DNA of 64,000 nt. Source: Patescibacteria group bacterium. Its GTDB lineage: Bacteria; Patescibacteriota; Patescibacteriia; UM-FILTER-42-10. A model generated the notes under the pieces. It was not told where the DNA came from. It did not search any database and saw nothing but the letters and a program-made list of their open reading frames with translations. Of the stretch, positions 12,440 to 33,664 are shown piece after piece (the first letter of the stretch is position 1; each line of letters begins with the position of its first letter). The stretch lies in NCBI GenBank assembly GCA_041664365.1, contig JBAYKW010000002.1:11858-75857 (forward strand), written 5' to 3'. Both the position numbers and the translations under genes were made by a program.

Positions 12440-12472
12440 GTTAAATAGTAATCATTCCTAATAAGCATTATG
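12440..12472 (+). promoter_or_regulatory. Fur-box-like site overlapping the fur start codon (possible autoregulation)
   Basis: aatagtaatcattcctaataagcattatgg. TAATAAGCATTAT matches 11 of 13 positions of the Fur-box core TGATAATCATTAT. A TTGACA...TATGTT promoter lies just upstream at about 12411-12440. Confidence 0.35.
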
Positions 12473-13063: not shown

Positions 13064-13309
13064 ATGGCAGAAGAAAAAAAAGCCACGCCGAAAATTGCGA
13101 GAATTGAAGTCGACCGCGATGCGTGCATCAGCGTAGCCAGTTGCGTAGATATCGCACCGGAAGTATTCGAGCTTGATGACGAGGGAAAAGCAGTGGTCAA
13201 AAATGCAAAAGGCAATCCAGATGATGTTATCTTAGAATCAGCCCAGTCCTGCCCGGTAAACGCGATCATCCTTTATGATGAAGCAGGCAATAAAATCTGG
13301 CCCGTCTAG
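13064..13309 (+). CDS. small single-cluster ferredoxin
   Basis: 81 aa. ARIEVDRDACISVASCVDIAPEVFELDDEGKAVV...SCPVNAI matches Pyrococcus/Thermotoga-type [3Fe/4Fe-4S] ferredoxins. Confidence 0.65.
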   Translation: MAEEKKATPKIARIEVDRDACISVASCVDIAPEVFELDDEGKAVVKNAKGNPDDVILESAQSCPVNAIILYDEAGNKIWPV

Positions 13310-13403: not shown

Positions 13404-13973
13404 ATGAAAGAAATAGTATTAGACATTGAGACACAAACCGGATTCGGCGCCGGTGGCCGCAATAATAGAGATATGAAAATTTCTCTGGTCGGTATTTACC
13501 GCTATGAGACAGATACATATGAAGCGTTTCTGGAAAATGAATTGGTCAATCTCTGGCCGATCCTGGAACATTCCACGCGAATTATTGGTTACAATCTGGA
13601 TGGTTTCGACATGCCAATTTTAAACAACTATTATCCGGGTGATATTACCAAGATACCAACACTCGATATCATGGATGTGATTTACAAAGTACTGGGTTTC
13701 CGGGTGAAGCTTGATGACGTAGCTAAAGCTACACTCGATGTGGGAAAATCCGGAACCGGCTTGCAGGCAGTTACTTTGTTTAACGAAGGAAAGATTGAAG
13801 AGCTGAAAGATTATTGTCTGCAGGATGTGCGATTAACCCGTGATATTTATGAATATGGCAAACAAAACGGAAAAATATTTTATGAAAGCAAAATGAGTAA
13901 GGGAGAAGTGAAAATAAATTTTACTCCTCCGGAAAACCAGACTCATTCTATGAACTTAACCTTACCAATCTAA
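13404..13973 (+). CDS. RNase H-like 3'-5' exonuclease domain protein (DEDD/PolB-exo-like)
   Basis: LDIETQTGFG...YNLDGFDMPIL...DYCLQDVRLTRDIYEYG carry the Exo I/II/III-like acidic motifs. Stop overlaps the sufC start (TAATG). Confidence 0.5.
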   Translation: MKEIVLDIETQTGFGAGGRNNRDMKISLVGIYRYETDTYEAFLENELVNLWPILEHSTRIIGYNLDGFDMPILNNYYPGDITKIPTLDIMDVIYKVLGFRVKLDDVAKATLDVGKSGTGLQAVTLFNEGKIEELKDYCLQDVRLTRDIYEYGKQNGKIFYESKMSKGEVKINFTPPENQTHSMNLTLPI

Positions 13974-14725
13974 TGAAAAAAATGTTTTCAATCAAAAATC
14001 TAAAAATATCCGTTGATGATAAAAAGATTGTCAAAGGGATAACCTTGAATATTCCAAAGGGGGAGATCCACGCTTTGATGGGACCGAACGGTTCCGGCAA
14101 GAGCACACTCGCGCAGGCGGCAATGGGCCATCCGCGCTACCGGATTGATGCCGGTAATATTAAAATAAACGGCAAAGAGATTTCCAAATTATCACCGGAC
14201 AAAAGAGCGCGCGCGGGGTTGTTTTTATCCTTTCAGTATCCGAGTGAAATACCGGGCGTCAGTCTCCTGAATTTTTTACGCACAGCGTACAATCAGGTAA
14301 AGCGCACGCCAAAGAATCCGATCACCTTTGCGGATTTCAAAAAGCTGGCAAAGGAAAAACTGGAACTGCTGCAAATGGATCCGGATTTCCTGACCCGCTC
14401 CATTAATGAGGGATTTTCCGGTGGTGAAAAAAAACGCGCGGAAATACTGCAATTGGCCATATTAGAGCCGGAATACGCTATTTTAGATGAGACGGATTCC
14501 GGATTGGATGTGGATGCTTTAAGGATCGTGGCGGAAGGGATTAACGTCGTGCGTAAAAATTCCAAAACAGGGTTGCTGTTGATTACCCATTATCAACGAA
14601 TCTTAGAATATATTACACCGGATGTGGTGCATATCATGGTTGACGGAAAGATTGTAAAGACCGGCGATGCTAAATTGGCAAAACAGATTGAGAAAAACGG
14701 TTACCGGGGGATAATAAAAAAATAA
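13973..14725 (+). CDS. sufC: Fe-S cluster assembly ATPase SufC
   Basis: Walker A GPNGSGKSTL, ABC signature FSGGEKKR, Walker B/D-loop ILDETDSGLD, and suf operon context. Confidence 0.85.
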   Translation: MKKMFSIKNLKISVDDKKIVKGITLNIPKGEIHALMGPNGSGKSTLAQAAMGHPRYRIDAGNIKINGKEISKLSPDKRARAGLFLSFQYPSEIPGVSLLNFLRTAYNQVKRTPKNPITFADFKKLAKEKLELLQMDPDFLTRSINEGFSGGEKKRAEILQLAILEPEYAILDETDSGLDVDALRIVAEGINVVRKNSKTGLLLITHYQRILEYITPDVVHIMVDGKIVKTGDAKLAKQIEKNGYRGIIKK

Positions 14726-15244
14726 ATGTACTTACCGACTCAAAAGCAGTGTTTTGATCTTTGGGATAAATATCAAATGCCGGAACATATTAAACGGCAT
14801 TCAGCAACGGTAACTCAGGTTGCGGATACTGTTACTCTATATCTTGAAAGTCAGGGAGTTAAAATCGATAAAATTTTAGTTAATAGAGGTGCGCTGTTAC
14901 ATGATATTGCAAAAATAATAGCTGTGAATGAAAATCGTGAACGTGAACATGCAGAGATGGGTTCGGAAATTGCGGTCAGGGAAAATCTCGGTAAGGAGAT
15001 CTCGGAAATAATTCGCAAGCACTATATGAATACATTTAATGATCAATGCACTTTGGAAGAATTAATCGTCAATTATGCCGACAAAAGAGTTGCACAGAAT
15101 AAAATTGTTTCTTTGGCGGAAAGATTTGATTACATTTGTAAAAGATATCCTCGAGCTATTCCCGACATTATCAATAATCAGCAGAAATATTTTGAATTTG
15201 AAAAAGAATATCAGATTGACCAACTGGATTTGATGGAAAAATAA
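14726..15244 (+). CDS. HD-domain phosphohydrolase (YqeK-like) embedded in the suf operon
   Basis: HD motif ALLHDIAK and further His/Asp residues ([15 protein letters not shown]). Start abuts the sufC stop (TAAATG) and the stop overlaps the sufB start (TAATG). Confidence 0.55.
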
Positions 15245-16653
15245 TGAAGAAAAAAGTTCAAACAAAAAAAATCGTTTCAGATAAATACAAATTCGGGTTT
15301 GCCATGCCGGAAAATTTTGTGTTCAGGACACGCAAGGGTTTGGATGAGGAAGTGGTTAAAGAAATTTCCTGGCATAAAAAGGAGCCGGCTTGGATGACGG
15401 CACTTAGACTGAAAGGTTATGAATATTTTAAGGCGCGTCCCCTACCGAAATGGGGCGGTGATCTTTCGAAACTGAATTTTGACAATATTTATTATTACAT
15501 CAAGCCGACGGAAAAACAGGCTCGCACCTGGCAGGATCTGCCGAAAGATATTAAAACCACTTATGATCGGATTGGCGTTCCGGAAGCGGAAAAAAATTTC
15601 CTGGCCGGAGTCGGAGCACAGTATGATTCTGAAGTGGTCTATCATTCTTTGCAGAAAGAGCTGAGTAAACAGGGAATTATTTTTGTCAGCATGGATCATG
15701 CATTGCGTGATTATCCTGAATTGGTAAAGAAATATTTTGGTACTATTATTCCAGTCAATGATAATAAATTTGCCGCGCTCAATACGGCAACTTGGTCCGG
15801 TGGGTCATTTATTTACGTCCCTAAGGGTGTTAAGGTTAAACTGCCGCTTCAGGCATATTTCCGAATTAACGCGGCTAATATGGGCCAGTTTGAAAGAACT
15901 TTGATTATTGCTGATGAGGGAAGCTATGTGCATTATGTCGAGGGTTGTACGGCGCCGATTTACTCCACCGATTCACTGCATTCGGCTGTTGTCGAGATCG
16001 TGGTCAAAAAAGGAGCGCGGGTCCGGTATACCACCGTGCAGAACTGGAGTAATAATGTATATAACCTGGTGACCAAAAGAATGCGGGTGGAAGAAGAAGG
16101 AATCGGCGAATGGGTGGACTGCAATTTAGGCTCAAAACTGACTATGAAATACCCCAGCTGCATTTTGGTAGGTAAAAAAGCCCGGGGCGAAATTCTTTCC
16201 ATGGCGTATGCCGGAAAAGGACAGCATCAGGATGCGGGCGGGAAAATAATTCATGCGGCACCGGAAACCTCCGGCCGGGTAATCTCCAAATCAATCAGCC
16301 AACATGGTGGGCGGACGTCTTACCGCGGACTTTTGCAAATGACACCCAGAGCAGACCGGGCTAAAGCCAAGGTCGTTTGTGATGCCTTGATATTGGATCA
16401 TGATTCTCGTTCCGATACCTATCCCGATATGAAAATCAATAACCAGAACGTCCAGGTGGAACATGAAGCAACCGTTTCTAAAATCGGTGAAGACCAGCTT
16501 TTTTATCTGATGAGCCGTGGACTAGATCTGGCATCAGCTGAGGCATTAATTATCAACGGATTCATTGAACCGATTGTAAAAGAACTGCCTTTGGAATATG
16601 CGATTGAAATGAACCGCTTAATTCAAATGCAAATGGAAGGGAGTGTCGGATAA
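15244..16653 (+). CDS. sufB: Fe-S cluster assembly protein SufB
   Basis: 469 aa. Typical SufB blocks ([39 protein letters not shown]-terminal [16 protein letters not shown]). Confidence 0.85.
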
Positions 16654-16687: not shown

Positions 16688-17305
16688 ATGAAAAAAGAGC
16701 GAATTATAATTGATTATCTTGGGAAGAATAAGAACGTATCCGTTTTCGTAAAAAAGGGGGAATCTTTAATTTACATTTTACTGGGCTTTAAATCCGGAGA
16801 TAAAAATATTACGATCAATCTGGAAGGTGACGGTGCGGAAGCCAGAATCTTGGGAGCGATTTTGGGTTCTAAGGGAAAAACGAATATTAATACTTTCCAG
16901 CACCATCGCGCGCCGAACACAAAAAGTGATCTGCTGATTAAAGGTGTATTTCTGAATCAGACCAGTTATCAATATGAAGGCTTGATCAAGATTGATCCGA
17001 AAGCTCAAAAATCCAACGCGTATCAGAAGAATAATAATCTGCTACTGAGTGATCAGGCGCATGTTGACACCAGTCCTAAGCTCGAGATACTGGCGGATGA
17101 CGTCCGCTGTACGCACGGAGCGACTGTTGGTAGAATAGATGAAGAGGAACTGTTCTATCTGATGAGCCGCGGAATTTCGAGAAAAGAAGCGGAAAAATTG
17201 GTAATCAGCGGATTCCTAAAAAGCATCGCTAGGGATTTGAGTGATCAAAAGACCAGGCAGAAGATTGAGATTGTTTTAGATAAGGAAATAAGAAAACTGT
17301 TATAA
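16688..17305 (+). CDS. sufD: Fe-S cluster assembly protein SufD (short form)
   Basis: C-terminal [27 protein letters not shown] is the SufB/D signature. 205 aa, shorter than typical SufD. Confidence 0.7.
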   Translation: MKKERIIIDYLGKNKNVSVFVKKGESLIYILLGFKSGDKNITINLEGDGAEARILGAILGSKGKTNINTFQHHRAPNTKSDLLIKGVFLNQTSYQYEGLIKIDPKAQKSNAYQKNNNLLLSDQAHVDTSPKLEILADDVRCTHGATVGRIDEEELFYLMSRGISRKEAEKLVISGFLKSIARDLSDQKTRQKIEIVLDKEIRKLL

Positions 17306-17306
17306 A

Positions 17307-18530
17307 ATGCCGGATATCACAAAGGTAAAATTAGATTTTCCGATTTTAAGCCAAAAAATGAACGATCAGCGTTTGGTTTATCTTGATAATGCCGCAACAA
17401 CCCAAAAACCAAAAAAAGTTATTGATGCAATAACAGAATTTTATGAAAAGTATAATGCCAACACGCACCGGGGGATTTATCAGCTGAGCGAAAAGGCGAC
17501 TGCTATGTATGAAGATTCCCGGGAAAAGGTGAGAGCATTCATCGGCGCGGAAAAAACTGAAGAAATAATTTTTACGCGTGGAACAACCGAGTCAATCAAT
17601 CTGGTGGCTTATTCCTGGGGTAGGAAAAACATTGAAGCGGAAGACGAAATATTGCTGACGGAAACGGAACATCATTCCAATATTGTACCATGGCAATTGC
17701 TGGCAAAAGAAAAAGGGGCAGTAATAAAATATATTCCGGTAGATAAAAATGGCAAGCTGAATTTGGATAATATTGACCAATATTTCACGAAAAAAACCAA
17801 GCTTCTGGCGCTAATCCATGTTTCCAACGTGCTCGGTGTCGTTAATCCGATCAGGGAAATAATTACAAAGGCGCATACTAGTGGTGTGCCGGTTTTGCTA
17901 GATGGCGCGCAGTCAACTCCGCATATGCCGGTAAATGTCAGGGAGCTCGATTGTGATTTCTTTGCTTTTTCCGGGCACAAAATGCTAGGTCCGACGGGAG
18001 TTGGCGTATTGTATGTGAGAGAAGATATTCTGGAAGAAATGCCCCCGTTCTTATCCGGCGGCAATATGATCCGGGAAGTGACCATGGCGGAAACAAAATT
18101 TGAAGACCTGCCTTTAAGGTTTGAAGCGGGGACAATGCCGATCGCACAGGTGATCGGGCTCGGTGTGGCGATTGATTATCTGAAATCAATCGGTATGGAA
18201 AATATCTGGCAGCATGAACAGGAAATAGTAAACTATGCTTTAGCAAAGATCAGAGCGATCAGCGGAGTCACCGTATATGGGCCGGAAGAAACGGTTGAGC
18301 GTAGCGGTGTGGTATCTTTCGCGATTGACGGTATTCACCCGCATGATTTAGCATCTGTTTTAAACGAAGCCGGCGTAGCGATCCGGGCCGGGCATCATTG
18401 CGCCCAGCCACTACTCAGTGCTTTGGGAACGGAAGCAACAGCGCGCGCCAGTTTTTATATCTATAATGACCAGAAAGATGTGGATCAATTAGTGGATGCG
18501 ATTAATCAAGCGATTAAAATATTAAAATGA
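17307..18530 (+). CDS. sufS: cysteine desulfurase SufS (class V aminotransferase)
   Basis: PLP site FFAFSGHKMLGPTGVGVLY and the catalytic region RAGHHCAQPL. 407 aa. Confidence 0.85.
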   Translation: MPDITKVKLDFPILSQKMNDQRLVYLDNAATTQKPKKVIDAITEFYEKYNANTHRGIYQLSEKATAMYEDSREKVRAFIGAEKTEEIIFTRGTTESINLVAYSWGRKNIEAEDEILLTETEHHSNIVPWQLLAKEKGAVIKYIPVDKNGKLNLDNIDQYFTKKTKLLALIHVSNVLGVVNPIREIITKAHTSGVPVLLDGAQSTPHMPVNVRELDCDFFAFSGHKMLGPTGVGVLYVREDILEEMPPFLSGGNMIREVTMAETKFEDLPLRFEAGTMPIAQVIGLGVAIDYLKSIGMENIWQHEQEIVNYALAKIRAISGVTVYGPEETVERSGVVSFAIDGIHPHDLASVLNEAGVAIRAGHHCAQPLLSALGTEATARASFYIYNDQKDVDQLVDAINQAIKILK

Positions 18531-18901
18531 GCATCTCGGATATTTATCGCGAAGAAATTATCGATCACGCGAAAAATCCGCGTAATTACGGAAAACTTGC
18601 TGATTTTGATTTTGAACACAAGGAGAATAATCCGGTCTGCGGGGATACAATAACGTTTCAGCTGAAATTGGACGGACAAAAAAAGGTAAAAGATATTGCG
18701 TTTGAAGGCAATGGCTGTACAGTTAGTCAGGCCGCAACTTCCCTGCTTTTTGAATCGGTTAAGGGAAAGACGGTTAGAGAAATTAAAAAATTATCACAAG
18801 CTGATGTGCTGGATTTACTGGGCCTCGACAATATTACTCCTTCGCGGGTAAAATGTGCCCTGCTTTCCTTGGAAGCATTAAAGAATGGGATTAAACAATA
18901 A
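18527..18901 (+). CDS. sufU: SufU/IscU-like Fe-S scaffold or sulfur acceptor
   Basis: NPVCGD...GNGCTVSQAATSLL...KCALL give three conserved Cys in NifU-N-like spacing. Start overlaps the sufS stop. Confidence 0.7.
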   Translation: MSISDIYREEIIDHAKNPRNYGKLADFDFEHKENNPVCGDTITFQLKLDGQKKVKDIAFEGNGCTVSQAATSLLFESVKGKTVREIKKLSQADVLDLLGLDNITPSRVKCALLSLEALKNGIKQ

Positions 18902-18962: not shown

Positions 18963-19544
18963 ATGAAATACGAATTACCAAAACTTAATTATTCATACGA
19001 TGCGCTAGAGCCTTACATCGACAAGGAAACGATGGAAATCCATCATTCTAAACATCACCAGGCTTATACGGACAACTTTAACAAAGTCCTGGAATTGCAT
19101 CCGGAATTATCGGAGATGTCGGTTGAAAAACTGCTGGCGGACGTTAATAATTTGGAAATTGAGGAGAAGGACAGAAATGTAATCCGCAACCACGGCGGTG
19201 GGTATTATAACCATAAATTGTTCTGGGAAATTATGGATCCGGCCAATACTAAAGATGCGGCATTAGTTGCAGATTTGGAAAGAGATTTCGGTTCTGTGGA
19301 TGCGTTCAAGGAAAAGTTTAATGAAGCGGCTAAATCCCAGTTCGGTAGCGGGTGGGCATGGCTCGCGCGAAATCCGGAAGGCAAACTGGAAGTTTATTCC
19401 ATGCCAAACCAGGACAGTCCGCTGCAGAAAGGGCATACGCCGATCCTGCTACTTGATGTCTGGGAGCATGCTTATTATCTCAAATACCAGAATAGAAGAC
19501 CGGAATACATTGAAAACTGGTGGAAAGTAATTAAATTAATCTAA
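18963..19544 (+). CDS. sodA: Fe/Mn superoxide dismutase
   Basis: LPKLNYSYDALEPYIDKETMEIHHSKHHQAYTDN and the C-terminal DVWEHAYYLKYQNRRPEYI are SodA/SodB hallmarks. Confidence 0.85.
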   Translation: MKYELPKLNYSYDALEPYIDKETMEIHHSKHHQAYTDNFNKVLELHPELSEMSVEKLLADVNNLEIEEKDRNVIRNHGGGYYNHKLFWEIMDPANTKDAALVADLERDFGSVDAFKEKFNEAAKSQFGSGWAWLARNPEGKLEVYSMPNQDSPLQKGHTPILLLDVWEHAYYLKYQNRRPEYIENWWKVIKLI

Positions 19545-19562
19545 ACTTGTAAAGGAAAAAAT

Positions 19563-20282
19563 ATGCATCATAATGAAAAAGAATGCGAATGCACGGGAGA
19601 CTGTGCAGAAAACGGCGAATGTAATTGCAAAGAAACTGGTGATGATTGCTGCAATGAAAACAATTCAGGCGTTTGTGATTGTGATTCAGACGATTGTTGC
19701 GAAGACAATGGCGCGTCAGGATGTGATTGCGATGAGGCAGATGACTGCTGTTGTGATGGGGGCAATATACAGGTCAACAAACCCGCTCCGGGATTTACGC
19801 TGGAGGGGATTGATAAAGAGGGTGTTAAGAAATATGGTCTAAGTGATTACAAGGGAAAATGGCTGGTGTTGTATTTCTATCCGCTCGATTTCACCTTCGT
19901 CTGCCCGACTGAAGTAACCGAGTTTTCCAAAAGGTTGAAAGAATTTGAGAAACTCGATACCAAGGTCCTGGGGTGCAGTACGGACAGCGTGCATTCACAC
20001 AAAGCATGGTTGAAGGAACTGGGTGACCTCGGCTACCCACTGCTTAGCGATATGACACACGAGGTAAGTAAAAGGTATCAGGTTCTACTTGAAGATGAAG
20101 GAGTCGCACAACGCGGATTATTCATCATTGACCCTGAAGGTGAACTGCGATACCAAGTAGTTCATGATTTCGATGTCGGACGCAATGTTGACGAAGTTTT
20201 GAGAGTATTAGAAGCTTTGCAAAACGGTGGTTTGTGCCAAGTCGGCTGGAAACCGGGCGATAAAACGTTGAAAGAGAAATAA
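19563..20282 (+). CDS. typical 2-Cys peroxiredoxin (AhpC/Prx1 type) fused to an N-terminal Cys/Asp/Glu-rich metallothionein-like extension of about 70 aa
   Basis: Peroxidatic FTFVCPTE and resolving C-terminal GGLCQVGWKPGDKTL. The N-terminus MHHNEKECECTGDCAENGECNCKETGDDCCNENNSGVCDCDSDDCCEDNGASGCDCDEADDCCCDGG contains 20 Cys. Confidence 0.75.
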   Translation: MHHNEKECECTGDCAENGECNCKETGDDCCNENNSGVCDCDSDDCCEDNGASGCDCDEADDCCCDGGNIQVNKPAPGFTLEGIDKEGVKKYGLSDYKGKWLVLYFYPLDFTFVCPTEVTEFSKRLKEFEKLDTKVLGCSTDSVHSHKAWLKELGDLGYPLLSDMTHEVSKRYQVLLEDEGVAQRGLFIIDPEGELRYQVVHDFDVGRNVDEVLRVLEALQNGGLCQVGWKPGDKTLKEK

Positions 20283-20295
20283 TTGCTGCAATTAA

Positions 20296-20326
20296 AAAAT
20301 CCCGCTCTGAAAGAGCGGGATTTTTG
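20296..20326. terminator. bidirectional rho-independent terminator
   Basis: AAAAAATCCCGCTCT-gaa-AGAGCGGGATTTTT lies between convergent genes. Confidence 0.65.
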
Positions 20327-20336
20327 ATATGTATGA

Positions 20337-20573
20337 TTATTCCTGGGCGGTATAACCGGCCTTTTTTATTTCAGCGGACATTTTCTCCGGAGTAACCTTT
20401 TGCGGATCGTAAATCACTTTGGTTATCTGTTTGGCGTAATTTGTGGTGCTTTCCAGTACTCCGTCAAGTTCTTCCAATGCGCCGTCAATATTCATAGCAC
20501 AACTGGGGCAATGCATGCCGGATATCTTGAATTCTATTTCGGTACCTTCTTTTTTTGGTTTCGAATTGAACAT
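20337..20573 (-). CDS. copZ: heavy-metal-associated (HMA) domain copper chaperone
   Basis: GMHCPSCAMNIDGALEEL is the MxCxxC ferredoxin-like metal-binding fold. 78 aa. Confidence 0.75.
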   Translation of the reverse strand: MFNSKPKKEGTEIEFKISGMHCPSCAMNIDGALEELDGVLESTTNYAKQITKVIYDPQKVTPEKMSAEIKKAGYTAQE

Positions 20574-20590
20574 ATATTTCGGTTACTTAA

Positions 20591-21655
20591 TTAAATAACT
20601 TCCATTACTCCGGTGTACATGCCCATCGAGCAGGCGAAGACGAATTTACCTTTTTTCTGCGGTGTGAATTTAAAGGTCTGGGAGTCGGTCGGGTCCAGCA
20701 GTTCATAAATTTCAAATTCTTTGAAAGTAAAAGCGCTGGCACAGGAATAAGTATCCTCAGTTTTTACCGTTAATTCTACCGGCACTCCCGCCTGCACCTT
20801 GAAACGATTGGGACTGTAGCCGTTATTTTCCACATCAATTGTAATTCTTTGCACATTTTCCGAATCCATCAGTGACGGATCTGATAACGTAGCAAAATCC
20901 ACCGGCTCTTTTGATTCATCAAATAATGCAAGTTTAATCCGCTGCCAGGAAATCGGCGCATCCATTGCCTGCAAAGCCCCATTAATTCCGTAAAGAGACA
21001 TGAATATCAGTAATACGGCGGCGAATTTCATAAATTTTATTTGCATAGAGCCGGAAAGTTTGGCGGTAACAATTCCGATTAAACCGAAGACCGGCGCGGT
21101 CCCCAGAACAAACATAAACATTATTAATGCACCCATAACTGGGCTACCACTGTTAATTGCTAATACTTCCATCGCTTGAGTAACACCGCAGGGGATAAAG
21201 ATCGTAAAGAATCCTAATGTAGCGGGTGCAAAAAAGTAATTAGCCCTGCTGGTTGAACGCACCCAGCGTTGCATAAATTTCGGCGGCTGGAACATGACAA
21301 ACCGGAACATCGGGTGGACATTTAATAGATTCAGCGCAGTTGCCAGCATAAACAGGGCGGCCAATATCTGGAAAGTAATTCGTACGCCAAAACTTAGTGT
21401 CAGTACGGAACCTAATGCGCCAAGTAAAAATCCTAAAATTGTATGGGAAATCAATTTAGCGGAAAGGAACATCACTACGGGCATGACATTGTCCCTATGT
21501 AAAATGTTTTGTGTTTTTTGCTTTAATTCTTGATTATCCTGATTTTCTTTTCTTTTTTGATTGGCGACCACTGAAGCAAGCAAGCCTCCTTGCATCGCGA
21601 CACAGGAGATTCCACCCGTTGTCAGTCCGGTCAAAAATACTAGCCAAAGGTCCAT
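20591..21655 (-). CDS. polytopic membrane protein (DsbD_2/TauE-like permease fold) with a C-terminal cupredoxin-like Cys/Met-rich domain; probable copper handling
   Basis: Multiple TM helices in the N-terminal two-thirds. The C-terminal beta-rich domain carries YSCASAF...FACSMGMYTGVMEV. Sits in the cop operon between copA and copZ. Confidence 0.5.
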   Translation of the reverse strand: MDLWLVFLTGLTTGGISCVAMQGGLLASVVANQKRKENQDNQELKQKTQNILHRDNVMPVVMFLSAKLISHTILGFLLGALGSVLTLSFGVRITFQILAALFMLATALNLLNVHPMFRFVMFQPPKFMQRWVRSTSRANYFFAPATLGFFTIFIPCGVTQAMEVLAINSGSPVMGALIMFMFVLGTAPVFGLIGIVTAKLSGSMQIKFMKFAAVLLIFMSLYGINGALQAMDAPISWQRIKLALFDESKEPVDFATLSDPSLMDSENVQRITIDVENNGYSPNRFKVQAGVPVELTVKTEDTYSCASAFTFKEFEIYELLDPTDSQTFKFTPQKKGKFVFACSMGMYTGVMEVI

Positions 21656-21659
21656 TTGT

Positions 21660-23897
21660 TTATTCCTTAGTTATCTGTTTAGTTAAAGATATTGTTTTTA
21701 AACGCAAGGCATTGGTCACAACCGAAATACTGGAAAAGGCCATTGCCATGCTGGCTAGCATTGGATTTAAACGAATGCCGAAGAATGGAAATAAAATTCC
21801 CATGGCAACCGGTATCAGCAAAATGTTATAGCCAAACGCCCAAAGCAGATTCTGACGGATATTATTCATGGTTACTCTGGCAAGTTTTAAAGCTTTTGGC
21901 ACTAATAGAAGATCCCCCCGCAATAGCGTAATGCCGGCGGATTCAATCGCTACACCTGTACCCTCATCCATTGCAATGCCGATGTCTGCTGTTGCCAGCG
22001 CCGGTGCATCATTTACGCCGTCACCAACCATAGCGACAACTGCGCCCTGACTTTTCCTCTTTTTCACTTCCTGCTCCTTATCTTCTGGAAGCACCTCCGC
22101 GCTGAATTCATCGATCTGGAGCGTTTTGGCAATTGTCTGTGCCGTATTATAATTATCACCTGTAATCATTACTGAATTGATTTTCATCGCTCTTAGTTGT
22201 CCGATTGCAGCTTTGGAGTTTTCTTTTGGAGCATCTGAAATATCAAATCTGATTTTTATTTCATTATCAATTGCTACAAAAACCAGCGTACCATAATCAA
22301 CCTGTGTCTCCATAATTTTTGACGGGTCAGATATATTTCTCTCCCGCATTAACTTGGCGGTTCCAATCAAGACTTGTGAACCGTCAACAGTAGCGGTTAC
22401 TCCGCGACCTGGCAGATCTTCAAAATTTTCCACTTGCTGTGCTTTTTTTATTCCCAATTCTGCCAGATAATCAACAATAGATTTGGCTAAAGGGTGCTGT
22501 GACAGTTCTTCTGCGGCCATTGCTTGCGACAAAGCGAAATTTTTTTGTTCGTGCTCTAATCCGGAGGCAGAAACCAGATTGTTTACCTCCGGCTTGCCGA
22601 CGGTTAGTGTCCCTGTTTTGTCAAAAATTACCACAGAAACTTTTTTAGCCGCTTCCAGTATTTCCGCGTTTTTAATTAAAATTCCGTCCCGAGCCCCTCG
22701 TCCGATGGCAACGGTCAGGGAGGTGGGGGTAGCTAAACCCAGTGCGCACGGACAGGCGATAATCAGAACAGAGATCATACTGACCAGTGCATTGGGTAGT
22801 TTGGGGTCCGGTCCGAAAATAATCCAGATAACAAAAGTAATTATGGAAAGCCCGATTACAATCGGTACAAAGTATGAGGAAATCTTATCCACCAATTTTT
22901 GAATCGGCGGTTTTGACCCCTGTGCCTGGCGCACCATGTTAATAATTTGCGACAACCTGGTTTTTTCACCGATCTGCTGAGCTTCCATCTCAAAAGCTCC
23001 GGAAGAGTTGATGGTGGCGGCAAACACCGAATCCCCGGATTTTTTTTCTACCGGCATGCTTTCCCCGGTCAACATGCTTTCATTAACTGCGCTGCTGCCG
23101 CTGATTATTGTGCCGTCAATGGGAATTTTTTCGCCCGGCTTAACCATTAATACATCTCCGATACTTATACTATTAACCGGCACGTCTTCCCATTTATTAT
23201 CTCTTTTTACGTGGGCAACCTGTGGTTGGAGCTGCAACAGTTTTTTTATCGCATCTGAAGCCCTGCCCTTAGCGCGTGATTCCAGATATTTTCCAAGTAG
23301 TACTAATGTCAGAATAGCAGCTGAGGTTTCAAAATAAACATGGTCATCAATACCTTTGTCCATTAAATAACTTGAAAATAGTAGAACAATCAGTGAATAG
23401 CCGTAAGCAACAGACGTTCCCAATGCAACCAAAGTATCCATATTGGTTGTTTTGTTCTTTAGCGCAGACCAGGCACTGCGATAAAACCCGGAGCCAAGCC
23501 AGATTTGAATCGGTGTGGCCAACGCAAGCATTACCCACCGGTTCATCAAAAATTCCGGCGCGCCGGGTAGCATCGCGCCAATAATTAATCCTAGTGAGAG
23601 AATACTGCCGAATATAATTTTCTGTTTCAGCGATTTTAATTTCTCTTCATGTTCGTGTTCTGTTATCTCTTCTTCTTTTTCTTTATCCAAAATGGCTTTA
23701 TAACCCAGTGAGCTGACGATTTCAGCGATCTTTGATTCATTAATCGTATTTGGATCATAATCTAGATAGGCCTGCTCGTTGGCATAATTAACTGATGCGT
23801 CTTGGACACCGTCAGCTTTTTTTAGTTTTCTCTGGATATTCATCGCACATGATGCGCAGTGCATTCCGGAGACATGAAAATCAATTGATTTAGACAT
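21660..23897 (-). CDS. copA: copper-translocating P1B-type ATPase
   Basis: N-terminal [17 protein letters not shown]6 CPC motif [13 protein letters not shown], phosphorylation site DKTGTLT, and hinge GDGVNDAP. Confidence 0.9.
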
Positions 23898-24366
23898 ATT
23901 TTTTGGGATTTTTTAAAAATTCTTTTTTACAACCCGAAGCGCAGAAATAATAAGCGGTTCTTTTATAATATCCGGAAAAAGCCGTGTGCCTTGGTAATAC
24001 TTTCATTTTGCAAACGGGGTCAATGAATTCCGGAACAGCCGGTAGGGCAGAGTGGTTAATTACCGTTTTTTCCTGTGTCCGGTCGGCAAGGATTCTTTGA
24101 ATGGAATCCAGCACCTTAATAAATTCGGGGTGGGAGATGCAATATTTTATTTCTTTGCCGTTCCGCTCAGTAACTACTACACCCTCGCGGCGCAGTACCT
24201 GCAGATGCTGACTGATGTTGGCCTGGCTGATTCCGGTCATTTTTTTCATTTCCGACACGGTCAGGCAGTGACTACGCAAAAGCTGCATTATTTCAATGCG
24301 TTTAGTGTTTTTTATCGCCTCGATTAATCGGGCGTATTGCGTGTAATTAATGTTAGACATATTCAT
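23890..24366 (-). CDS. ArsR-family HTH metalloregulator fused to a C-terminal YHS/TRASH copper-binding domain
   Basis: [33 protein letters not shown] followed by DPVCKMKV...YYFCASGC, which is YHS-like. First gene of the divergent cop operon. Confidence 0.65.
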
Positions 24367-26288: not shown

Positions 26289-26765
26289 ATGCAGTGCCCT
26301 GTGTGCCACAATATGGATAGTAAAGTTATCGACTCCCGTTCAATAGAAGAAGGGATTGCTATTCGCCGGCGCAGAGAGTGTGAAAAATGTCAGTTCCGAT
26401 TTTCAACATATGAAGAGGTGGAAATTCTGGACCTCTCGGTGGTTAAACAGGACGGTCGCAGAGAGGTATACATTCGTGAGAAGATTGAAAACGGATTGAA
26501 GCGGGCGCTCGAAAAAAGGCCGGTTGACCGTGAAGCATTCCGAAGACTAATCAGTCATATTGAAAGGGATATTCAACTTCGTAGCAAACCGGCATCCGCA
26601 AAAAATAACGGAGCACGCCGGGAGATAGAAACTTCCAAAATCGGAGAGATTGCCATCAAGCATTTGAAGAAATTGGATCCCGTAGCCTATATCCGTTTCG
26701 CATCCGTTTATAAATCTTTTGAAGACATTGATTCATTTAAAAAAGAACTTAAAAAAATAAGCTAA
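26289..26765 (+). CDS. nrdR: transcriptional repressor NrdR
   Basis: MQCPVCHNMDSKVIDSR...RRRECEKCQFRFSTYE zinc ribbon followed by an ATP-cone. Confidence 0.85.
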   Translation: MQCPVCHNMDSKVIDSRSIEEGIAIRRRRECEKCQFRFSTYEEVEILDLSVVKQDGRREVYIREKIENGLKRALEKRPVDREAFRRLISHIERDIQLRSKPASAKNNGARREIETSKIGEIAIKHLKKLDPVAYIRFASVYKSFEDIDSFKKELKKIS

Positions 26766-26783
26766 TTAATTATAGGAGGCGCC

Positions 26784-29714
26784 ATGCCAGAAGAAACACA
26801 AACAATTACACAAACAAAGGTTCAGGGAAACGAAACAAGTATTAAAGATTCTTCTCTTGATGAGAGCGAAGAAATACAAATAGAAAAAAAGAAAGGTTTA
26901 ACTTTTGAACGTTTCTTCTCTCATTCAGGGAAGCATCCCTTTGACGATGTTAAATGGGAAAGGCGCGATGCTACAATTACTGATCCGAAAGGAAATATAA
27001 TCTTCGAACAGAAGAATGTAGAGTTTCCTGTTTTTTGGACTCAGAATGCAACCAATATTTGTGTTTCCAAATATTTCTATGGCGACGAAAAAAAAGGTGA
27101 AAGAGAAAACAGTGTAAAACAGCTTGTTGATCGTGTTTCACGAACCATGACCGATTGGGGAAAGAAAGACGGATATTTCGCCTCGGAAGAGGATGGAGAA
27201 AATTTTTATAACGAACTAACCTTCCTGTTAGTAAATCAGTATGCCGCCTTCAACAGCCCGGTGTGGTTTAACTGTGGTGTAAATCGTTATGATACAGGAT
27301 CCGGAGCCGGCAGATACTATTGGAATAAAGAACAGGGGAAAGTATTATTGGCCGAGGATGACTACACTTATCCGCAATGCTCCGCCTGTTTTATTAATTC
27401 CGTGGAAGATTCTATGGATTCTATTTTGAGTTTATCCAAAACAGAAGGAATGCTGTTCAAGTTCGGATCCGGCACCGGTACTAATCTTTCAACTATCAGA
27501 TCTTCAAGGGAAAGGTTGAGTGGCGGAGGGCAGTCGTCCGGTCCAGTATCATTTATGAAGGGTTTTGATGCGTTTGCGGGTGTTATTAAATCCGGTGGAA
27601 AAACCCGCCGGGCCGCTAAAATGGTGATTCTAAACGCTGATCATCCGGATATCGTTGATTTTATTGATTCCAAGGCCAATGAAGAAAAGAAAGCCTGGGC
27701 TTTGATTGACGCGGGATACAATGGTGCAATTGACGGCGAAGCATATACTTCTATTTTCTTCCAAAATGCCAATAACAGTGTCCGAGTAACCGATAAGTTT
27801 ATGGAAGCAGCGATGGAAAACAAGAAATGGAAAACGCACGCGGTGACAACCGGTGAAGAAATGGAAACGTATAATGCCCGGGATCTGATGCAAAAGATTG
27901 CCGATGCAACATATATTTGCGGTGATCCGGGTCTGCAGTTTGATACAACGATCAATGATTGGCACACTTGTCCGAATACCGACCGGATTAACGCATCCAA
28001 TCCTTGCAGTGAATACATGTTCCTGAACGATTCTGCCTGCAATCTGGCCTCCCTTAATTTAATGAAATTTACAAATGAACAGGGAGTATTTGACATTGAT
28101 TCTTATTTGCATGCCGTGGACGTAATGATTACTGCGCAAGAAATTGTAGTTGATCATGCCAGCTATCCAACGGCAGAGATTACAAAGAATAGTCATCTGT
28201 TCAGACCGCTAGGGCTTGGGTATGCTAATCTCGGAGCACTCTTAATGTCGCTAGGTCTTGCGTACGACAGCGACGAAGGAAGAGCCTGGGGCGGGTTAGT
28301 TACTTCAATCATGACCGGGCGCGCTTACCGGCAGTCAACTTTGATTGCTAATGTCGTGGGTACATTCGCGGAATATGAAACGAACCGCAGCCCGTTCCTG
28401 CGCGTTATGAGAAAACACAGAGACGCTGTTTATGATATCAGAGATTTTAATAAACAATCAGCGGAATTGAAAATAACGGCCGGGGAAATCTGGGATGAGG
28501 TAGTGGAAATGGGACAGCAATACGGATTCCGCAATGCTCAAACAACAGTACTTGCTCCGACCGGAACAATCGGGTTCCTAATGGACTGTGATACTACCGG
28601 AATTGAGCCCGACATTGCTTTGGTCAAATATAAGAAGTTGGTCGGTGGTGGCTATATGAAGATCGTAAATTCAACCGTGCCATTGGCGCTTAGACATTTG
28701 GGATACACTAATGAGCAGATCAATGCAATTATTGACTACATTGACAGTAACGACACGATTGAAGGCGCGCCTTCTTTGGATGAAGATCATCTGTCTGTAT
28801 TTGACTGCGCATTCAGACCAAGTAATGGCGTAAGATCGATTCATCATATGGGTCATATTAAAATGATGTCCGCGGCTCAACCTTTCCTGTCCGGTGCAAT
28901 TTCTAAAACAGTTAATATGCCGGAAGAATCCAAGGTGGAAGATATCATGGACGCATATATTCAAGCCTGGAAGCTGGGCCTGAAAGCAGTTGCGGTTTAT
29001 CGTGACGGTTCCAAGCGCACGCAGCCGCTAAATACTGGTAAGGAAGACGGCAATAAAAAGGAAAAGACAAACGGTGATCAGGTGATCCGTCTGAAACTGC
29101 CTGATGAAAGACAGTCAATTACCCATAAATTTGAAATAGCCGGACATGAAGGATATATCACCGCGGGACTCTACGAAACAGGTGAAGTTGGGGAAATCTT
29201 TATCACCATGTCCAAAGAGGGTAGTACACTCTCCGGAATTATGGACGCATTTGCTACTTCCATATCTCTTAACCTGCAATACGGCGTGCCTTTGAAAGTT
29301 CTGGTCAGTAAGTTCACCCATTCCCGTTTTGAACCGGCAGGATTTACCTCCAACAAACAGATCCCGATGGTTAAATCAATTATGGATTATATTTTCCGCT
29401 GGCTTGCGATCAAATTCCTGAGACCGGAAGAAGCGGCACTGGTTCATAATGCTTTGTTGATTGGCAATGACCAGAAGGAGATGGAAGTAAAAAATACTGA
29501 AGTTAGAAAAGAGAAGGAAAAAGAAACCGTTGCAAAACCCGGTGCAGGACAGGAACCACTACCTTCATTCAAAGAAAAGTCCGAACAACAGGAACTGTTA
29601 ACATTCCAGAATTCTGAGGATGCCCCATTCTGCGGGGAGTGTGGATCAATCATGGTGCGCAGCGGATCCTGCTATAAATGCATAGAATGCGGATCTACCA
29701 GCGGGTGCTCTTAA
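26784..29714 (+). CDS. nrdJ: class II (adenosylcobalamin-dependent) ribonucleotide reductase with a C-terminal zinc ribbon
   Basis: 976-aa RNR fold with an N-terminal ATP-cone-like region and the active-site Cys/Asn/Glu region (NPCSEYMFLNDSACNLASLNL). C-terminal CGECGS...CYKCIECGS. Context: nrdR upstream, cobalamin adenosyltransferase downstream. Confidence 0.75.
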   Translation: MPEETQTITQTKVQGNETSIKDSSLDESEEIQIEKKKGLTFERFFSHSGKHPFDDVKWERRDATITDPKGNIIFEQKNVEFPVFWTQNATNICVSKYFYGDEKKGERENSVKQLVDRVSRTMTDWGKKDGYFASEEDGENFYNELTFLLVNQYAAFNSPVWFNCGVNRYDTGSGAGRYYWNKEQGKVLLAEDDYTYPQCSACFINSVEDSMDSILSLSKTEGMLFKFGSGTGTNLSTIRSSRERLSGGGQSSGPVSFMKGFDAFAGVIKSGGKTRRAAKMVILNADHPDIVDFIDSKANEEKKAWALIDAGYNGAIDGEAYTSIFFQNANNSVRVTDKFMEAAMENKKWKTHAVTTGEEMETYNARDLMQKIADATYICGDPGLQFDTTINDWHTCPNTDRINASNPCSEYMFLNDSACNLASLNLMKFTNEQGVFDIDSYLHAVDVMITAQEIVVDHASYPTAEITKNSHLFRPLGLGYANLGALLMSLGLAYDSDEGRAWGGLVTSIMTGRAYRQSTLIANVVGTFAEYETNRSPFLRVMRKHRDAVYDIRDFNKQSAELKITAGEIWDEVVEMGQQYGFRNAQTTVLAPTGTIGFLMDCDTTGIEPDIALVKYKKLVGGGYMKIVNSTVPLALRHLGYTNEQINAIIDYIDSNDTIEGAPSLDEDHLSVFDCAFRPSNGVRSIHHMGHIKMMSAAQPFLSGAISKTVNMPEESKVEDIMDAYIQAWKLGLKAVAVYRDGSKRTQPLNTGKEDGNKKEKTNGDQVIRLKLPDERQSITHKFEIAGHEGYITAGLYETGEVGEIFITMSKEGSTLSGIMDAFATSISLNLQYGVPLKVLVSKFTHSRFEPAGFTSNKQIPMVKSIMDYIFRWLAIKFLRPEEAALVHNALLIGNDQKEMEVKNTEVRKEKEKETVAKPGAGQEPLPSFKEKSEQQELLTFQNSEDAPFCGECGSIMVRSGSCYKCIECGSTSGCS

Positions 29715-29720
29715 GAATCC

Positions 29721-30269: not shown

Positions 30270-30272
30270 TGT

Positions 30273-30317
30273 GGTTAGGGATTAGGGGATAGGGATAAGG
30301 GTGTTAGGATTAGGGCA
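30273..30317 (+). repeat. G-rich telomere-like repeat block (TTAGGGATTAGGGGATAGGGATAAGGG...), related to 5905-5990
   Basis: ggttagggattaggggatagggataagggtgttaggattaggg read directly. Confidence 0.8.
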
Positions 30318-30329
30318 TTGAAAACATAA

Positions 30330-30527: not shown

Positions 30528-30556
30528 AAAGATTAACTAATTGTCATAATAAAATC

Positions 30557-31021: not shown

Positions 31022-31022
31022 T

Positions 31023-33647: not shown

Positions 33648-33664
33648 ATTCGTGGAGGTGTGTC

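Follow-up and report, generated by a model that had tools for sequence, protein, structure and literature searches.

The closest precedent for a peroxiredoxin with a cysteine-rich N-terminus is the enzyme of Entamoeba histolytica, in which the extension is flexible and may account for density at the center of the decamer in a cryo-EM map (PMC13532219); the function of this extension is still unresolved (PMC13532219, PMC4009108). Bacterial thioredoxin-2, a thioredoxin-fold protein induced by oxidative stress, carries a cysteine-based metal-binding extension, also at the N-terminus (PMC8615215). In Helicobacter pylori, acidic and histidine-containing stretches with vicinal cysteines (EEGCC, GSCCH) in Hpn and in the tail of HspA (GroES) bind Ni(II) and Zn(II), and for peptides with an acidic CC motif, EEGCC among them, the affinity for both ions is higher than that of CH/HC motifs (PMC10221980). 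Metallothioneins, which include the bacterial SmtA/BmtA and MymT as well as the eukaryotic families, contain 15-30% cysteine in CxC and CC motifs, lack aromatic residues, are disordered without metal, and change rapidly in length and copy number. The protein that bears the HspA tail is a housekeeping oligomer in the shape of a ring, and ZntA/CadA contain a cysteine-rich N-terminal motif, CCCDGAC, that precedes the heavy-metal domain. A "thioredoxin-metallothionein chimera" reported in 2026 (PMC13578184) was considered as a precedent for a natural fusion and is not relied on here because its halves match enterobacterial TrxA at 96% and Synechococcus SmtA at 98%.

We analyzed a peroxiredoxin gene, prx, in a 64,000-nucleotide stretch of DNA (the window) from a tiny, uncultured bacterium of the Patescibacteria (CPR). 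The gene and its parts are as follows.

19551..19556, + strand: AAAGGA, the ribosome-binding site (7 nt past the stop codon of sod, 6 nt ahead of the prx ATG)
19563..20282, + strand: prx open reading frame, 239 aa
19563..19766, + strand: N-terminal tail rich in Cys, Asp and Glu (aa 1-68; predicted disordered, with 16 Cys and 22 acidic residues and without aromatics)
19590..19628, + strand: conserved N-block C10-TGD-C14-x5-C20-x-C22, its four Cys invariant in the four relatives aligned
19746..19754, + strand: CCC triad, C62-C64, invariant in the subfamily
19767..20282, + strand: typical 2-Cys peroxiredoxin domain (aa 69-239; Pfam AhpC-TSA, E 9e-41) and stop codon
19902..19904, + strand: codon of the peroxidatic Cys114, in P107-LDF-T111-FV-C114-PTE
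20235..20237, + strand: codon of the resolving Cys225, in GGLCQVGWKPG

The catalytic part, described in the earlier note as a standard AhpC/Prx1 domain, is just that. The AhpC-TSA (PF00578) match spans aa 71-197, and P107, T111, C114, R184 and C225 are all invariant in an alignment of 142 sequences; Cys225 aligns with the VCP resolving cysteine of solved 2-Cys peroxiredoxins in a comparison with PDB sequences. The sequence matches in PDB are Prx1/2/4 and tryparedoxin peroxidases (E 1e-52), and Foldseek matches the monomer model from AlphaFold2, in which this domain has a pLDDT above 90, to Prx1/2/4 with target-normalized TM-scores of 0.80-0.88 and 47-52% identity, so that the fold resembles that of decameric 2-Cys peroxiredoxins. 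The fold, the PxxxTxxC motif with the arginine, and the resolving cysteine in the C-terminal arm together place the protein among the typical 2-Cys peroxiredoxins (AhpC/Prx1); as judged from the sequence, it is predicted to be an active enzyme of this type, with head-to-tail dimers or decamers and a reductant-dependent peroxidase activity to be expected. The identical 239-aa protein is recorded on two contigs of a public collection, one of them from the Logan assemblies of SRR6484324; with this independent support, an assembly artefact is unlikely.

The tail that precedes this domain is compositionally extreme. The extension of about 70 residues and its acidity stand as first described, whereas the cysteine count of 20 given there does not: the tail contains 16 cysteines (positions 8, 10, 14, 20, 22, 29, 30, 38, 40, 45, 46, 54, 56, 62, 63 and 64; 23.5% of 68 residues) out of 19 in the whole protein. 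The remaining residues include 13 Asp, 9 Glu, 8 Asn, 8 Gly, 2 Lys and 2 His, with no Phe, Trp, Tyr, Leu, Pro or Arg, and the 22 acidic and 2 basic residues give a net charge of about -20. The cysteines form three CxC motifs (plus CEC), one CxxxC, two CC and one CCC, with no CxxC. Across the 38 other open reading frames of the window (17,130 residues), cysteine is the rarest residue, at 1.4%; against the window frames, the binomial chance of at least 16 Cys in 68 residues is 2e-15, and that of at least 22 Asp/Glu is 1.5e-5. AlphaFold2 assigns the tail no secondary structure and a pLDDT of 45-51, and it is predicted to be intrinsically disordered. Open reading frames in alternative frames overlap the tail at 19573-19842 on the plus strand and 19568-19780 on the minus strand, as expected of low-complexity DNA. 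In the codon alignment of close relatives, seven tail cysteine columns are invariant despite TGT/TGC swaps; synonymous sites are saturated in the tail (pS ~0.8, range 0.38-1.0) and pN is 0.21-0.27, a pattern which indicates that the tail is under purifying selection.

The comparison with the described systems shows a metallothionein-like composition, as had been proposed, with the high cysteine content, the CxC, CC and CCC motifs and the absence of aromatics all in place. The tail differs from metallothioneins in that it is one continuous reading frame with an enzyme domain of 171 aa rather than a small free-standing protein, and is far more acidic than most of them; it is not a recognizable member of their families, with no Pfam match at E<=10 and no phmmer match. 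The claim that no peroxiredoxin with this kind of fusion had been described overlooks the E. histolytica enzyme. That enzyme is eukaryotic, however, and its extension has 9 Cys in about 25 residues, is rich in Lys and Glu (KECCKKEC...) and is followed by a helix, according to a sequence checked against the fragment positions in PMC5493030 and PMC13532219. BLASTP aligns only the peroxiredoxin domains of the two proteins, at 38% identity, which is below the 47-52% to other eukaryotic peroxiredoxins, and yields no tail-to-tail alignment; the resemblance is therefore convergent rather than homologous. The thioredoxin-2 extension is a folded zinc finger of two CxxC motifs, in contrast to the tail, which is predicted to be disordered; a Zn(Cys)4 finger of this type was not found, CxxC being absent from the tail and rare across the leaders of related peroxiredoxins. 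Hpn and the C-terminal tail of HspA share with the window protein acidic, histidine-containing stretches with vicinal CC, and Hpn begins M-A-H-H where the window protein begins M-H-H, but these proteins are dominated by His with few Cys, whereas our tail is dominated by Cys with few His, the carrier protein is a different one, and there is no sequence homology. The tail also contains CCCDGG (aa 62-67), and Pfam detects no HMA domain in the window peroxiredoxin.

Searches with the tail alone, as had been suggested, detected no homologues. The first 70 residues of the protein belong to no Pfam family, and three tails searched at E<=10 likewise gave none; tail-only phmmer against 1.84 billion (1.84e9) representatives gave no match at E<=1e-3, a result that signifies no detectable homology rather than an absence of similar tails, as the HMMER composition correction may suppress matches. 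A tail-only word-index search produced zero candidates, probably as a result of low-complexity handling, and a whole-protein scan of genome contigs retrieved only distant peroxiredoxins of unrelated phyla (31-45% identity). The DNA pattern of the N-block occurs at only 3 loci in the 241 million records of a metagenome collection, all of them sod-prx; in that collection, by this pattern, the module is found only at peroxiredoxin N-termini, never free-standing nor on other carriers.

The survey of related enzymes, which was based on 220 cluster representatives and 12 gene contexts, places the tail in a broader setting. Few antioxidant enzymes have been studied as thoroughly as peroxiredoxins, yet an unannotated cysteine leader occurs on roughly one in two of the closest relatives: shorter cysteine leaders are present in 106 of the 220 nearest sequences. 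Whether such an extension is common in annotated peroxiredoxin families, a question raised in the earlier note, thus has a divided answer, since short leaders are common but no annotated or described family that includes them was found, nor any model or paper describing the shorter cysteine-rich leaders of Patescibacteria peroxiredoxins. Nearly all leaders contain a vicinal CC (85 of 96 leader-bearing relatives), with motif totals in these 96 of 152 CC, 54 CxC and only 10 CxxC. The last leader cysteine lies 8-10 residues before the Ala of the xAPxF motif in 63 of 97 leaders (a count that ignores shared ancestry); the window protein has a distance of 11 and its close relatives have one of 10. 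The CCC triad is the local form of a vicinal-cysteine dyad set at a preferred distance before the peroxiredoxin fold in the wider family; judging by this register, the last CC may be coupled to the peroxiredoxin body. Histidine occurs at positions 2-4 in 35 of 96 proteins with a leader compared to 3 of 113 without one (Fisher 6e-11, uncorrected for relatedness). The window protein (example N-terminal peptide HHNEKECECTGDCAENGECNCK), P0002 and L026 start with M-H-H, unlike P0001 and P0003; we considered this start as an ATCUN-type Cu/Ni site, dropped the idea because M-H-H is missing in the latter two, and retained it only as part of the histidine enrichment.

Leader size varies widely. Most relatives' leaders hold only 2-5 Cys, but the count ranges from 2 to 19 between close relatives, and there were about 10 gains or losses of leaders with at least 7 Cys, for which the closest neighbors often have 0-5 Cys. 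The richest leader is that of P0097, with 19 Cys, and the window protein is second with 16; in P0097, Lys replaces Asp while the cysteines are retained, as in classical metallothioneins. The leaders of other Patescibacteria (P0090, P0099, P0189 and P0097) sit at the same position in the same enzyme clade (56-85% identity) and share the vicinal CC at a similar register and the acidic, Gly and Asn filler, but mostly have 2-6 Cys; the N-block CTGDC-x5-CxC combined with CCC is particular to the window protein and to the four or five relatives nearest to it. The tail is a lineage-specific enlargement of a short CC leader that about half of the related Patescibacteria peroxiredoxins have, set at a preferred distance from the first beta-strand; the window protein is close to the extreme of this series, and the habit of carrying such a leader is apparently widespread in this family and so far undescribed. 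Nature thus supplies a ready set of constructs, enzymes that are nearly identical apart from leaders of 0 to 19 Cys.

In the genome, prx is the last gene of a perR-ferredoxin-suf-sod-prx cluster for oxidative stress and Fe-S assembly, which is followed by convergent copper genes.

12470-12994, + strand: PerR-like Fur regulator
13064-13309, + strand: ferredoxin
13404-13973, + strand: RNase H-like gene
13973-14725, + strand: sufC
14726-15244, + strand: HD-domain gene
15244-16653, + strand: sufB
16688-17305, + strand: sufD
17307-18530, + strand: sufS
18527-18901, + strand: sufU
18963-19544, + strand: Fe/Mn superoxide dismutase, sod (Pfam Sod_Fe_N, Sod_Fe_C), 18 nt upstream of prx
20295..20325, no strand assigned: GC-rich hairpin with an A-run on one side and a T-run on the other, in the gap that separates prx from copZ
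20337-20573, - strand: copZ-like HMA protein
20591-21655, - strand: DsbD_2 plus cupredoxin membrane protein
21660-23897, - strand: CopA P1B-ATPase
23890-24366, - strand: ArsR/SmtB-YHS regulator
20337..24366, - strand: whole convergent copper cassette, listed as a neighbor with no membership in the feature implied

The sod-prx pair, which is probably co-transcribed, is kept in every close relative and also in P0090 and P0095, and the upstream genes from perR to sufU are identical in order and length in L013 and L014; the conserved partners of prx are perR, the suf genes and sod. The position between sod and a copper-efflux operon was correctly described, with sod directly upstream and the copper cassette following on the minus strand, but the link to that operon is not conserved. 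The cassette is convergent and lies behind a strong hairpin (-23.4 kcal/mol by direct folding, z -6.4, with 0 of 200 shuffles equally stable), which a simple terminator scan did not list and which is likely a bidirectional terminator; moreover, the cassette is present in L013, L020 and L026 and absent at the same site in L014, which carries P0003. A connection of the tail to the cassette is further weakened by tailed peroxiredoxins of other clades, none of which is flanked by metal-efflux genes, the only metal-related neighbors there being a ZIP transporter and an ArsP permease, both in L018. In another clade, the context consists of glutaredoxin, gshA and ferredoxin, with a [2Fe-2S] ferredoxin gene 7-36 nt after prx. 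A tie between the tail and this downstream ferredoxin was rejected as tail-specific, given that the tail-less P0131 has the same arrangement of grx with prx-fer2. A tail-less peroxiredoxin (L033) and tailed ones (L018, L028 and L029) share the same gene context, which implies that the tail is accessory.

The best explanation of these observations, which we favor tentatively, is that the tail is a disordered, metallothionein-like metal-thiolate segment in redox contact with the peroxidatic site. It would bind thiophilic ions such as Zn(II), Cu(I), Ni(II), Cd(II) or Fe(II). Peroxiredoxin N-termini are expected to emerge side by side at the dimer and to point into the ring, so that the tails of neighboring subunits could share metal ions, and one CC dyad per chain could suffice for a tetrathiolate site across the dimer. 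The tail thiolates would adjoin the peroxidatic and resolving cysteines, which would make disulfide exchange with that pair possible; peroxide would oxidize the tail and release the metal, whereas in its reduced state, the tail would keep metals that are Fenton-active or Fe-S-poisoning close to a sink for peroxide. This explanation is suggested by the cysteine-rich, strongly acidic composition with its CxC, CC and CCC motifs and without CxxC or aromatics; by the histidine enrichment, because histidine has no role in a disulfide relay; by the repeated gain or loss of leaders with at least 7 Cys, which we count as selection for capacity; and by the predicted disorder, given that apo-metallothioneins are disordered too. 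The affinity of acidic CC peptides for Zn(II) and Ni(II), the density at the center of the E. histolytica decamer and the share of Prx4 N-termini in the dimer interface are in line with it as well. In the subfamily, tail size tracks the copper cassette (7 Cys without an adjacent cassette; 9, 12, 13 and 16 with it; n=5, the loci not being independent), which weakly supports metal binding. Counting against it, the adjacency to the cassette is unconserved, and a likely terminator separates prx from these genes, which are encoded on the other strand; the typical 2-5 Cys of most leaders are too few for a one-chain metallothionein cluster; the restriction of the module to peroxiredoxin N-termini points to a role tied to peroxiredoxin thiol chemistry rather than to general sequestration; and homology lends no support, as the tail matches neither metallothioneins nor any other family in Pfam and phmmer searches. 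If the tail does bind metal, it would represent a natural enzyme-metallothionein fusion that ties peroxide removal to metal buffering, would be relevant to minimal-genome bacteria with few alternatives, and would hint at the role of the long-unexplained cysteine-rich N-terminus of the Entamoeba enzyme.

The main rival to metal binding, possible although somewhat unlikely in our estimate, is a metal-free tail in which the extra thiols serve as an on-board electron reservoir or relay. Tail dithiols would exchange with the peroxidatic-resolving disulfide and regenerate the active site, so that each subunit could turn over as many as about 8 additional peroxide molecules until it required an outside reductant, or the disulfide would be handed to a reductant such as glutaredoxin or thioredoxin; such a reservoir would be a new way for a thiol peroxidase to gain burst capacity when reductant is scarce. 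The occurrence of the module on peroxiredoxins only, always at the N-terminus and with its final CC in the favored register, fits this scheme, as does the invariably redox-related context (sod and perR, or the glutaredoxin, gshA and ferredoxin of the other clade). Flexible terminal vicinal Cys or Cys-Sec pairs shuttle redox equivalents in high-molecular-weight thioredoxin reductases (PMC6155587), and of the Entamoeba tail, reviews say that it "probably contributes to enzymatic activity" (PMC4009108). However, CxxC, the favored dithiol motif, is depleted (10 versus 152 CC), vicinal disulfides are strained, and dense acidic flanks should, from general chemistry, raise thiol pKa and slow the exchange; furthermore, a relay leaves the N-terminal histidine enrichment unexplained, and tail-less relatives in identical contexts function without one.

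A rather improbable reading is that the vicinal-cysteine leader is an unrecognized functional module of Patescibacteria peroxiredoxins. In its expanded forms, with 7-19 Cys per chain and up to about 160 thiolates per decamer, the tails of neighboring subunits would build a common core, of metal-thiolate or iron-sulfur type, inside the ring or close to it and thereby confer a second activity. Such a core could provide a ferredoxin-driven, thioredoxin-independent route of reduction or, as another option, could store metal under redox control and so shield the Suf-dependent assembly of Fe-S clusters.

It is also improbable that the tail acts in assembly or as a scaffold, by cross-linking or stabilizing dimers, decamers or higher assemblies or by anchoring the enzyme on a surface or a partner. 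Charge or disulfides between chains would mediate this, a role that has been proposed for the N-terminal extensions of other peroxiredoxins. The N-terminal region of Prx4 adds to the dimer interface, and in the E. histolytica enzyme, the N-terminal helix bridges the A-type interface and the cysteine-rich part may occupy the center of the ring (PMC13532219); the latter enzyme makes disulfide-linked dimers and high-mass surface oligomers (PMC4009108). Yet a fixed structural contact would not be expected to vary from 2 to 19 Cys among close relatives, the AlphaFold2 prediction leaves the tail without structure, and the strong negative charge of each tail should repel its neighbors unless cations neutralize it, which leads back to metal binding.

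Neutral, slippage-type growth of a functionless low-complexity segment that is tolerated at a disordered terminus is quite improbable. The rapid change in length, the gain and loss of tails within conserved contexts, the predicted disorder, and the lack of phmmer homologues among the 1.84e9 representatives would be expected of such growth, and the motif pattern, with two CDCD..DDCC modules, by itself suggests internal duplication of the tail. Slippage is nevertheless not evident because the search for tandem repeats in the tail DNA found none that are significant and the DNA self-similarity of the two modules is not significant in local self-alignment against codon shuffles. In addition, seven cysteines are invariant at saturated synonymous divergence with pN < pS, the enrichment is specific to the rarest residue, and the vicinal CC at its preferred register recurs in about 100 sequences.

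Ligation of an Fe-S cluster by the seven invariant cysteines is highly doubtful. In ferredoxin:thioredoxin reductase, an Fe-S cluster lies next to a redox-active pair, and a similar arrangement in the tail could permit direct reduction by ferredoxin or sensing of Fe-S status or oxidants within the suf operon; the presence of one CxC among the invariant cysteines, the location of prx in a suf cluster with a ferredoxin gene of its own, and the [2Fe-2S] ferredoxin gene that follows prx in the other clade are compatible with this. Against it, the prx-fer2 pair occurs just as well where the peroxiredoxin has no tail (L033), most leaders have only 2-5 cysteines, and Pfam shows no similarity to any Fe-S family.

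Finally, it is barely conceivable that the tail is an untranslated annotation artefact with the real start inside the gene, as the earlier note had cautioned: support for this was sought and none was found, the next in-frame ATG, GTG or TTG is codon 102, within the fold and 12 residues before the peroxidatic cysteine, so that the tail must be translated, the Pfam domain begins at aa 71 with profile position 1, and the indels between relatives' tails are all in frame with the Cys codons conserved at the amino-acid level, which effectively refutes such a reading of the sequence. The start is conserved as well: the ATG, the ribosome-binding site and the spacing are kept in 4 loci, with AAAGGA or AAGGA and a gap of 17-19 nt between the sod stop codon and the ATG in L013, L014 and L020.

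The peroxiredoxin (Prx) gene of the window encodes an ordinary enzyme preceded by a cysteine-rich tail (aa 1-68). This tail is real, under selection and close to the extreme of a widespread Prx feature; a literature search for Cys-rich leaders, the equivalent N-terminal stretches of other Prx, found no description in bacteria or Patescibacteria.

19563-20282 (+): prx, 239 aa (read from the window sequence); AhpC/TSA domain at aa 71-197 (Pfam, E 9e-41)

The tail contains 16 of the 19 Cys of the protein, rather than the 20 that an earlier note had counted in the extension. Against a Cys background of 1.4% (17,130 residues from 38 other window ORFs), 16 in 68 corresponds to a binomial P of 2e-15. 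The other residues include 13 Asp, 9 Glu, 8 Asn, 8 Gly, 2 Lys and 2 His; Phe, Trp, Tyr, Leu, Pro and Arg are absent. The Cys motifs are, in order, CEC, CxxxC, CNC, CC, CDC, CC, CDC and CCC, with no CxxC, and Pfam detected no family in aa 1-70 even at E<=10. The identical protein is recorded on two contigs of a public collection, one of them the Logan assembly of SRR6484324. The catalytic domain is standard, as the same note had maintained: P107, T111, the peroxidatic C114, R184 and the resolving C225 are invariant in a 142-sequence alignment, and the closest solved structures are decameric typical 2-Cys Prx (Prx1, Prx2, Prx4, tryparedoxin peroxidases and plant 2-Cys Prx; sequence E ~1e-52), with target-normalised Foldseek TM-scores of 0.80-0.88 at 47-52% identity. 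In the AlphaFold2 model, pLDDT exceeds 90 for aa 70-239; aa 1-66 have values of 45-51 and no secondary structure.

The tail is translated. The first in-frame ATG, GTG or TTG past codon 1 is codon 102, 12 residues N-terminal of the peroxidatic Cys; because this codon lies within the fold and aa 71 already aligns with the first position of the Pfam profile, any internal start would disrupt the enzyme. Between the sod stop and the ATG are 18 nt, with AAAGGA 6 nt ahead of the ATG, and both the ribosome-binding site and a sod-prx gap of 17-19 nt recur in three related loci. Among the four relatives all tail indels are in frame, and seven Cys columns are invariant (C10, C14, C20, C22, C62, C63 and C64), encoded by a mix of TGT and TGC. 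Synonymous positions have reached saturation (pS ~0.8 across the Prx part); at non-synonymous ones, the tail has diverged by 0.21-0.27 and the enzyme part by 0.05-0.12. Taken together, the start, spacing, in-frame indels, invariant Cys and codon divergence indicate that the tail is coding and under purifying selection, which is weaker than that on the Prx domain. A mis-called start with an untranslated tail, the refutation that the earlier note had envisaged, is hardly credible given the conserved ATG and the lack of a usable start before codon 102.

Searched alone, the tail gave no match, whether by word index or with phmmer on 1.84 billion representatives, a result to which the composition correction of HMMER may contribute. 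The full-length query retrieved three close relatives with alignable tails (BLASTP, 67-78% identity):

P0001: 216 aa, 9 Cys, labelled Patescibacteria
P0002: 221 aa, 13 Cys, no source name
P0003: 202 aa, 7 Cys, labelled Patescibacteria

In a metagenome collection, the N-block DNA pattern C-T-G-[DE]-C-x5-C-x-C matches only three loci, each directly 3' of sod and 5' of prx, and yielded a further tail variant with 12 Cys (locus L026). This distribution, together with the three alignable relatives, shows that this particular tail is restricted to a narrow lineage and is not a mobile module.

Shorter leaders are far more common. At least two Cys occur in a short leader in ~27 of the best 120 matches to the window protein. 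A second search, seeded with P0097, which has the most Cys-rich leader among those matches (19 Cys, with Lys replacing Asp), found such leaders in 76 of 98 new sequences of a sister clade labelled Peregrinibacteria and Gracilibacteria, including long ones:

P0189: 14 Cys in 68 aa
P0136: 12 Cys
P0154: 11 Cys
P0219: 11 Cys

Over both searches, which cover top-scoring cluster representatives rather than the whole Prx family, leaders contain at least 2 Cys in 106 of 220 sequences, at least 4 in 52 and at least 7 in 16. The earlier note knew of no described Prx with such a fusion; this particular tail is unmatched outside its close relatives, but shorter Cys leaders are common among related Prx. 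Vicinal CC is present in 85 of 96 leaders (motif totals: CC 152, CxC 54, CxxC 10), and the last leader Cys lies 8-10 residues ahead of the Ala in xAPxF in 63 of 97, across leader lengths of ~9 to 77 aa. In 35 of 96 proteins with a leader, a His is found at positions 2-4, versus 3 of 113 without one (Fisher 6e-11, uncorrected for relatedness). In a neighbour-joining tree built from the Prx domains, at least 10 changes are required to account for the state of 7 or more Cys, and the nearest neighbours of long-tailed Prx often have 0-5 Cys; leaders therefore expanded repeatedly.

The window and the related loci L013, L020 and L026 share a gene order on one strand: PerR-like Fur regulator, ferredoxin, RNase H-like gene, sufC, HD-domain gene, sufB, sufD, sufS, sufU, sod and prx. 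A strong hairpin follows prx (-23.4 kcal/mol, z -6.4), and beyond it lie a convergent cassette (copZ, a DsbD_2/cupredoxin protein, copA and an ArsR-YHS regulator) and purA. In L014, which carries P0003 with the shortest tail, the order is otherwise unchanged, but the copper cassette is missing and purA directly follows prx. Individual features of these loci are:

13404-13973 (+): RNase H-like/exonuclease-like gene, an unusual suf operon member, kept in L013 and L014
14726-15244 (+): HD-domain gene between sufC and sufB, likewise unusual and kept in L013 and L014
20337-24366, versus 8609-8764 in L014: cassette region between prx and purA, a clean presence/absence polymorphism
20591-21655 (-): membrane protein gene between copZ and copA, kept in L013 and L026; DsbD_2 (cytochrome c biogenesis-type) transmembrane domain fused to a C-terminal cupredoxin-like domain

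Other tailed Prx have other contexts: perR-prx-sod-dps-nitroreductase for P0090, sod-prx near a suf operon for P0095 and, for P0099, P0189 and P0219, a glutaredoxin gene, divergently oriented, on one side of prx and a [2Fe-2S] ferredoxin gene directly downstream on the other, an arrangement that also occurs with the tail-less P0131. From these comparisons, the conserved partners of prx are peroxide, superoxide and Fe-S genes, and the copper operon adjoins it only locally; the placement of prx between sod and the copper operon stands as noted earlier, but the link to that operon is not conserved. The tail has been gained and lost within fixed gene contexts. In the sister clade, the glutaredoxin and ferredoxin genes flank prx with or without a leader (L018 7626-8899, L028 6670-8008, L029 6622-7964 and L033 2198-3456), and a glutamate-cysteine ligase gene is often nearby. 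The gene neighbourhoods hint that Prx reduction in these Patescibacteria is linked to glutaredoxin/glutathione or to ferredoxin.

The nearest precedent for the tail is a convergent eukaryotic case, the Prx of Entamoeba histolytica, whose Cys-rich N-terminal region "probably contributes to enzymatic activity" (PMC4009108); the likeness is considered convergent because the tails do not align and domain identity is just 38%. Another analogue, the N-terminal Zn finger of bacterial Trx2, differs from the window tail in its two CxxC motifs (PMC8615215). The reported "thioredoxin-metallothionein chimera" of Runella aurantiaca (PMC13578184), with halves 96% identical to enterobacterial TrxA and 98% to Synechococcus SmtA, has the appearance of a cloning-vector fusion within the source record rather than of a native gene.

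From coordination chemistry, a peptide of this size, with 16 thiolates and 22 carboxylates over 68 residues, would almost certainly carry bound metal in the reducing environment of the cytoplasm. Among analogues, Hpn and HspA have acidic CC motifs that are tight binders of Zn(II) and Ni(II) (PMC10221980). We consider metal-thiolate binding likelier than a relay by disulfides alone because CC and CxC are enriched and CxxC depleted, aromatic residues are lacking, P0097 keeps its Cys while filler residues switch charge, N-terminal His is enriched in leaders, and the tail is predicted to be disordered. Attachment to Prx alone and the favoured spacing of the last CC from the fold tie the function of the tail to the Prx body. 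We propose that the tails of neighbouring subunits share metal ions close to either the dimer interface or the centre of the ring, and that their thiols exchange disulfides with the peroxidatic/resolving Cys pair, whereby peroxide would be coupled to metal release or retention; this tentative mechanism falls a little short of being probable. A metal-free electron reservoir or relay, for which the Cys-Cys or Cys-Sec redox shuttle at the terminus of large thioredoxin reductases (PMC6155587) is an analogue, appears rather unlikely given the same motif spectrum. An assembly or cross-linking element is improbable; in its favour, the N-termini of Prx4 form part of the dimer interface, and in a 2026 cryo-EM study of the E. 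histolytica Prx the flexible residues 1-23 may explain density at the decamer centre (PMC13532219). Neutral low-complexity growth is quite improbable under the purifying selection observed, and an Fe-S or ferredoxin-linked tail, despite the suf and ferredoxin neighbours, is very improbable, ferredoxin also accompanying a tail-less Prx. The tail is surprising enough to interest Prx and metal-homeostasis specialists.

Elsewhere in the window, several further features were observed:

26289-31598 (+): B12-related block with NrdR, class II ribonucleotide reductase and corrinoid adenosyltransferase (29721-30269)
30324-30487, within this block: AdoCbl riboswitch (57 bits) preceding DUF4430 and DUF6580 genes, these two possibly a corrinoid uptake pair
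33644-34750 (-) and 33665-34768 (+): antiparallel, almost completely overlapping ORFs of 367 aa each, neither with a Pfam match
50293-50367 (+): tRNA-like gene (Rfam tRNA, 52.6 bits) adjoining tRNA-Arg(tct); ARAGORN assigns it the four-base anticodon 'tctc' without an amino acid, which could reflect an expanded anticodon loop or a mis-call
57773-63613 (+): 1946-aa ORF with a T4SS-pilin-like N-terminal domain, TIG and Big_5 Ig-like domains and several stretches dense in Cys, probably encoding a large surface protein
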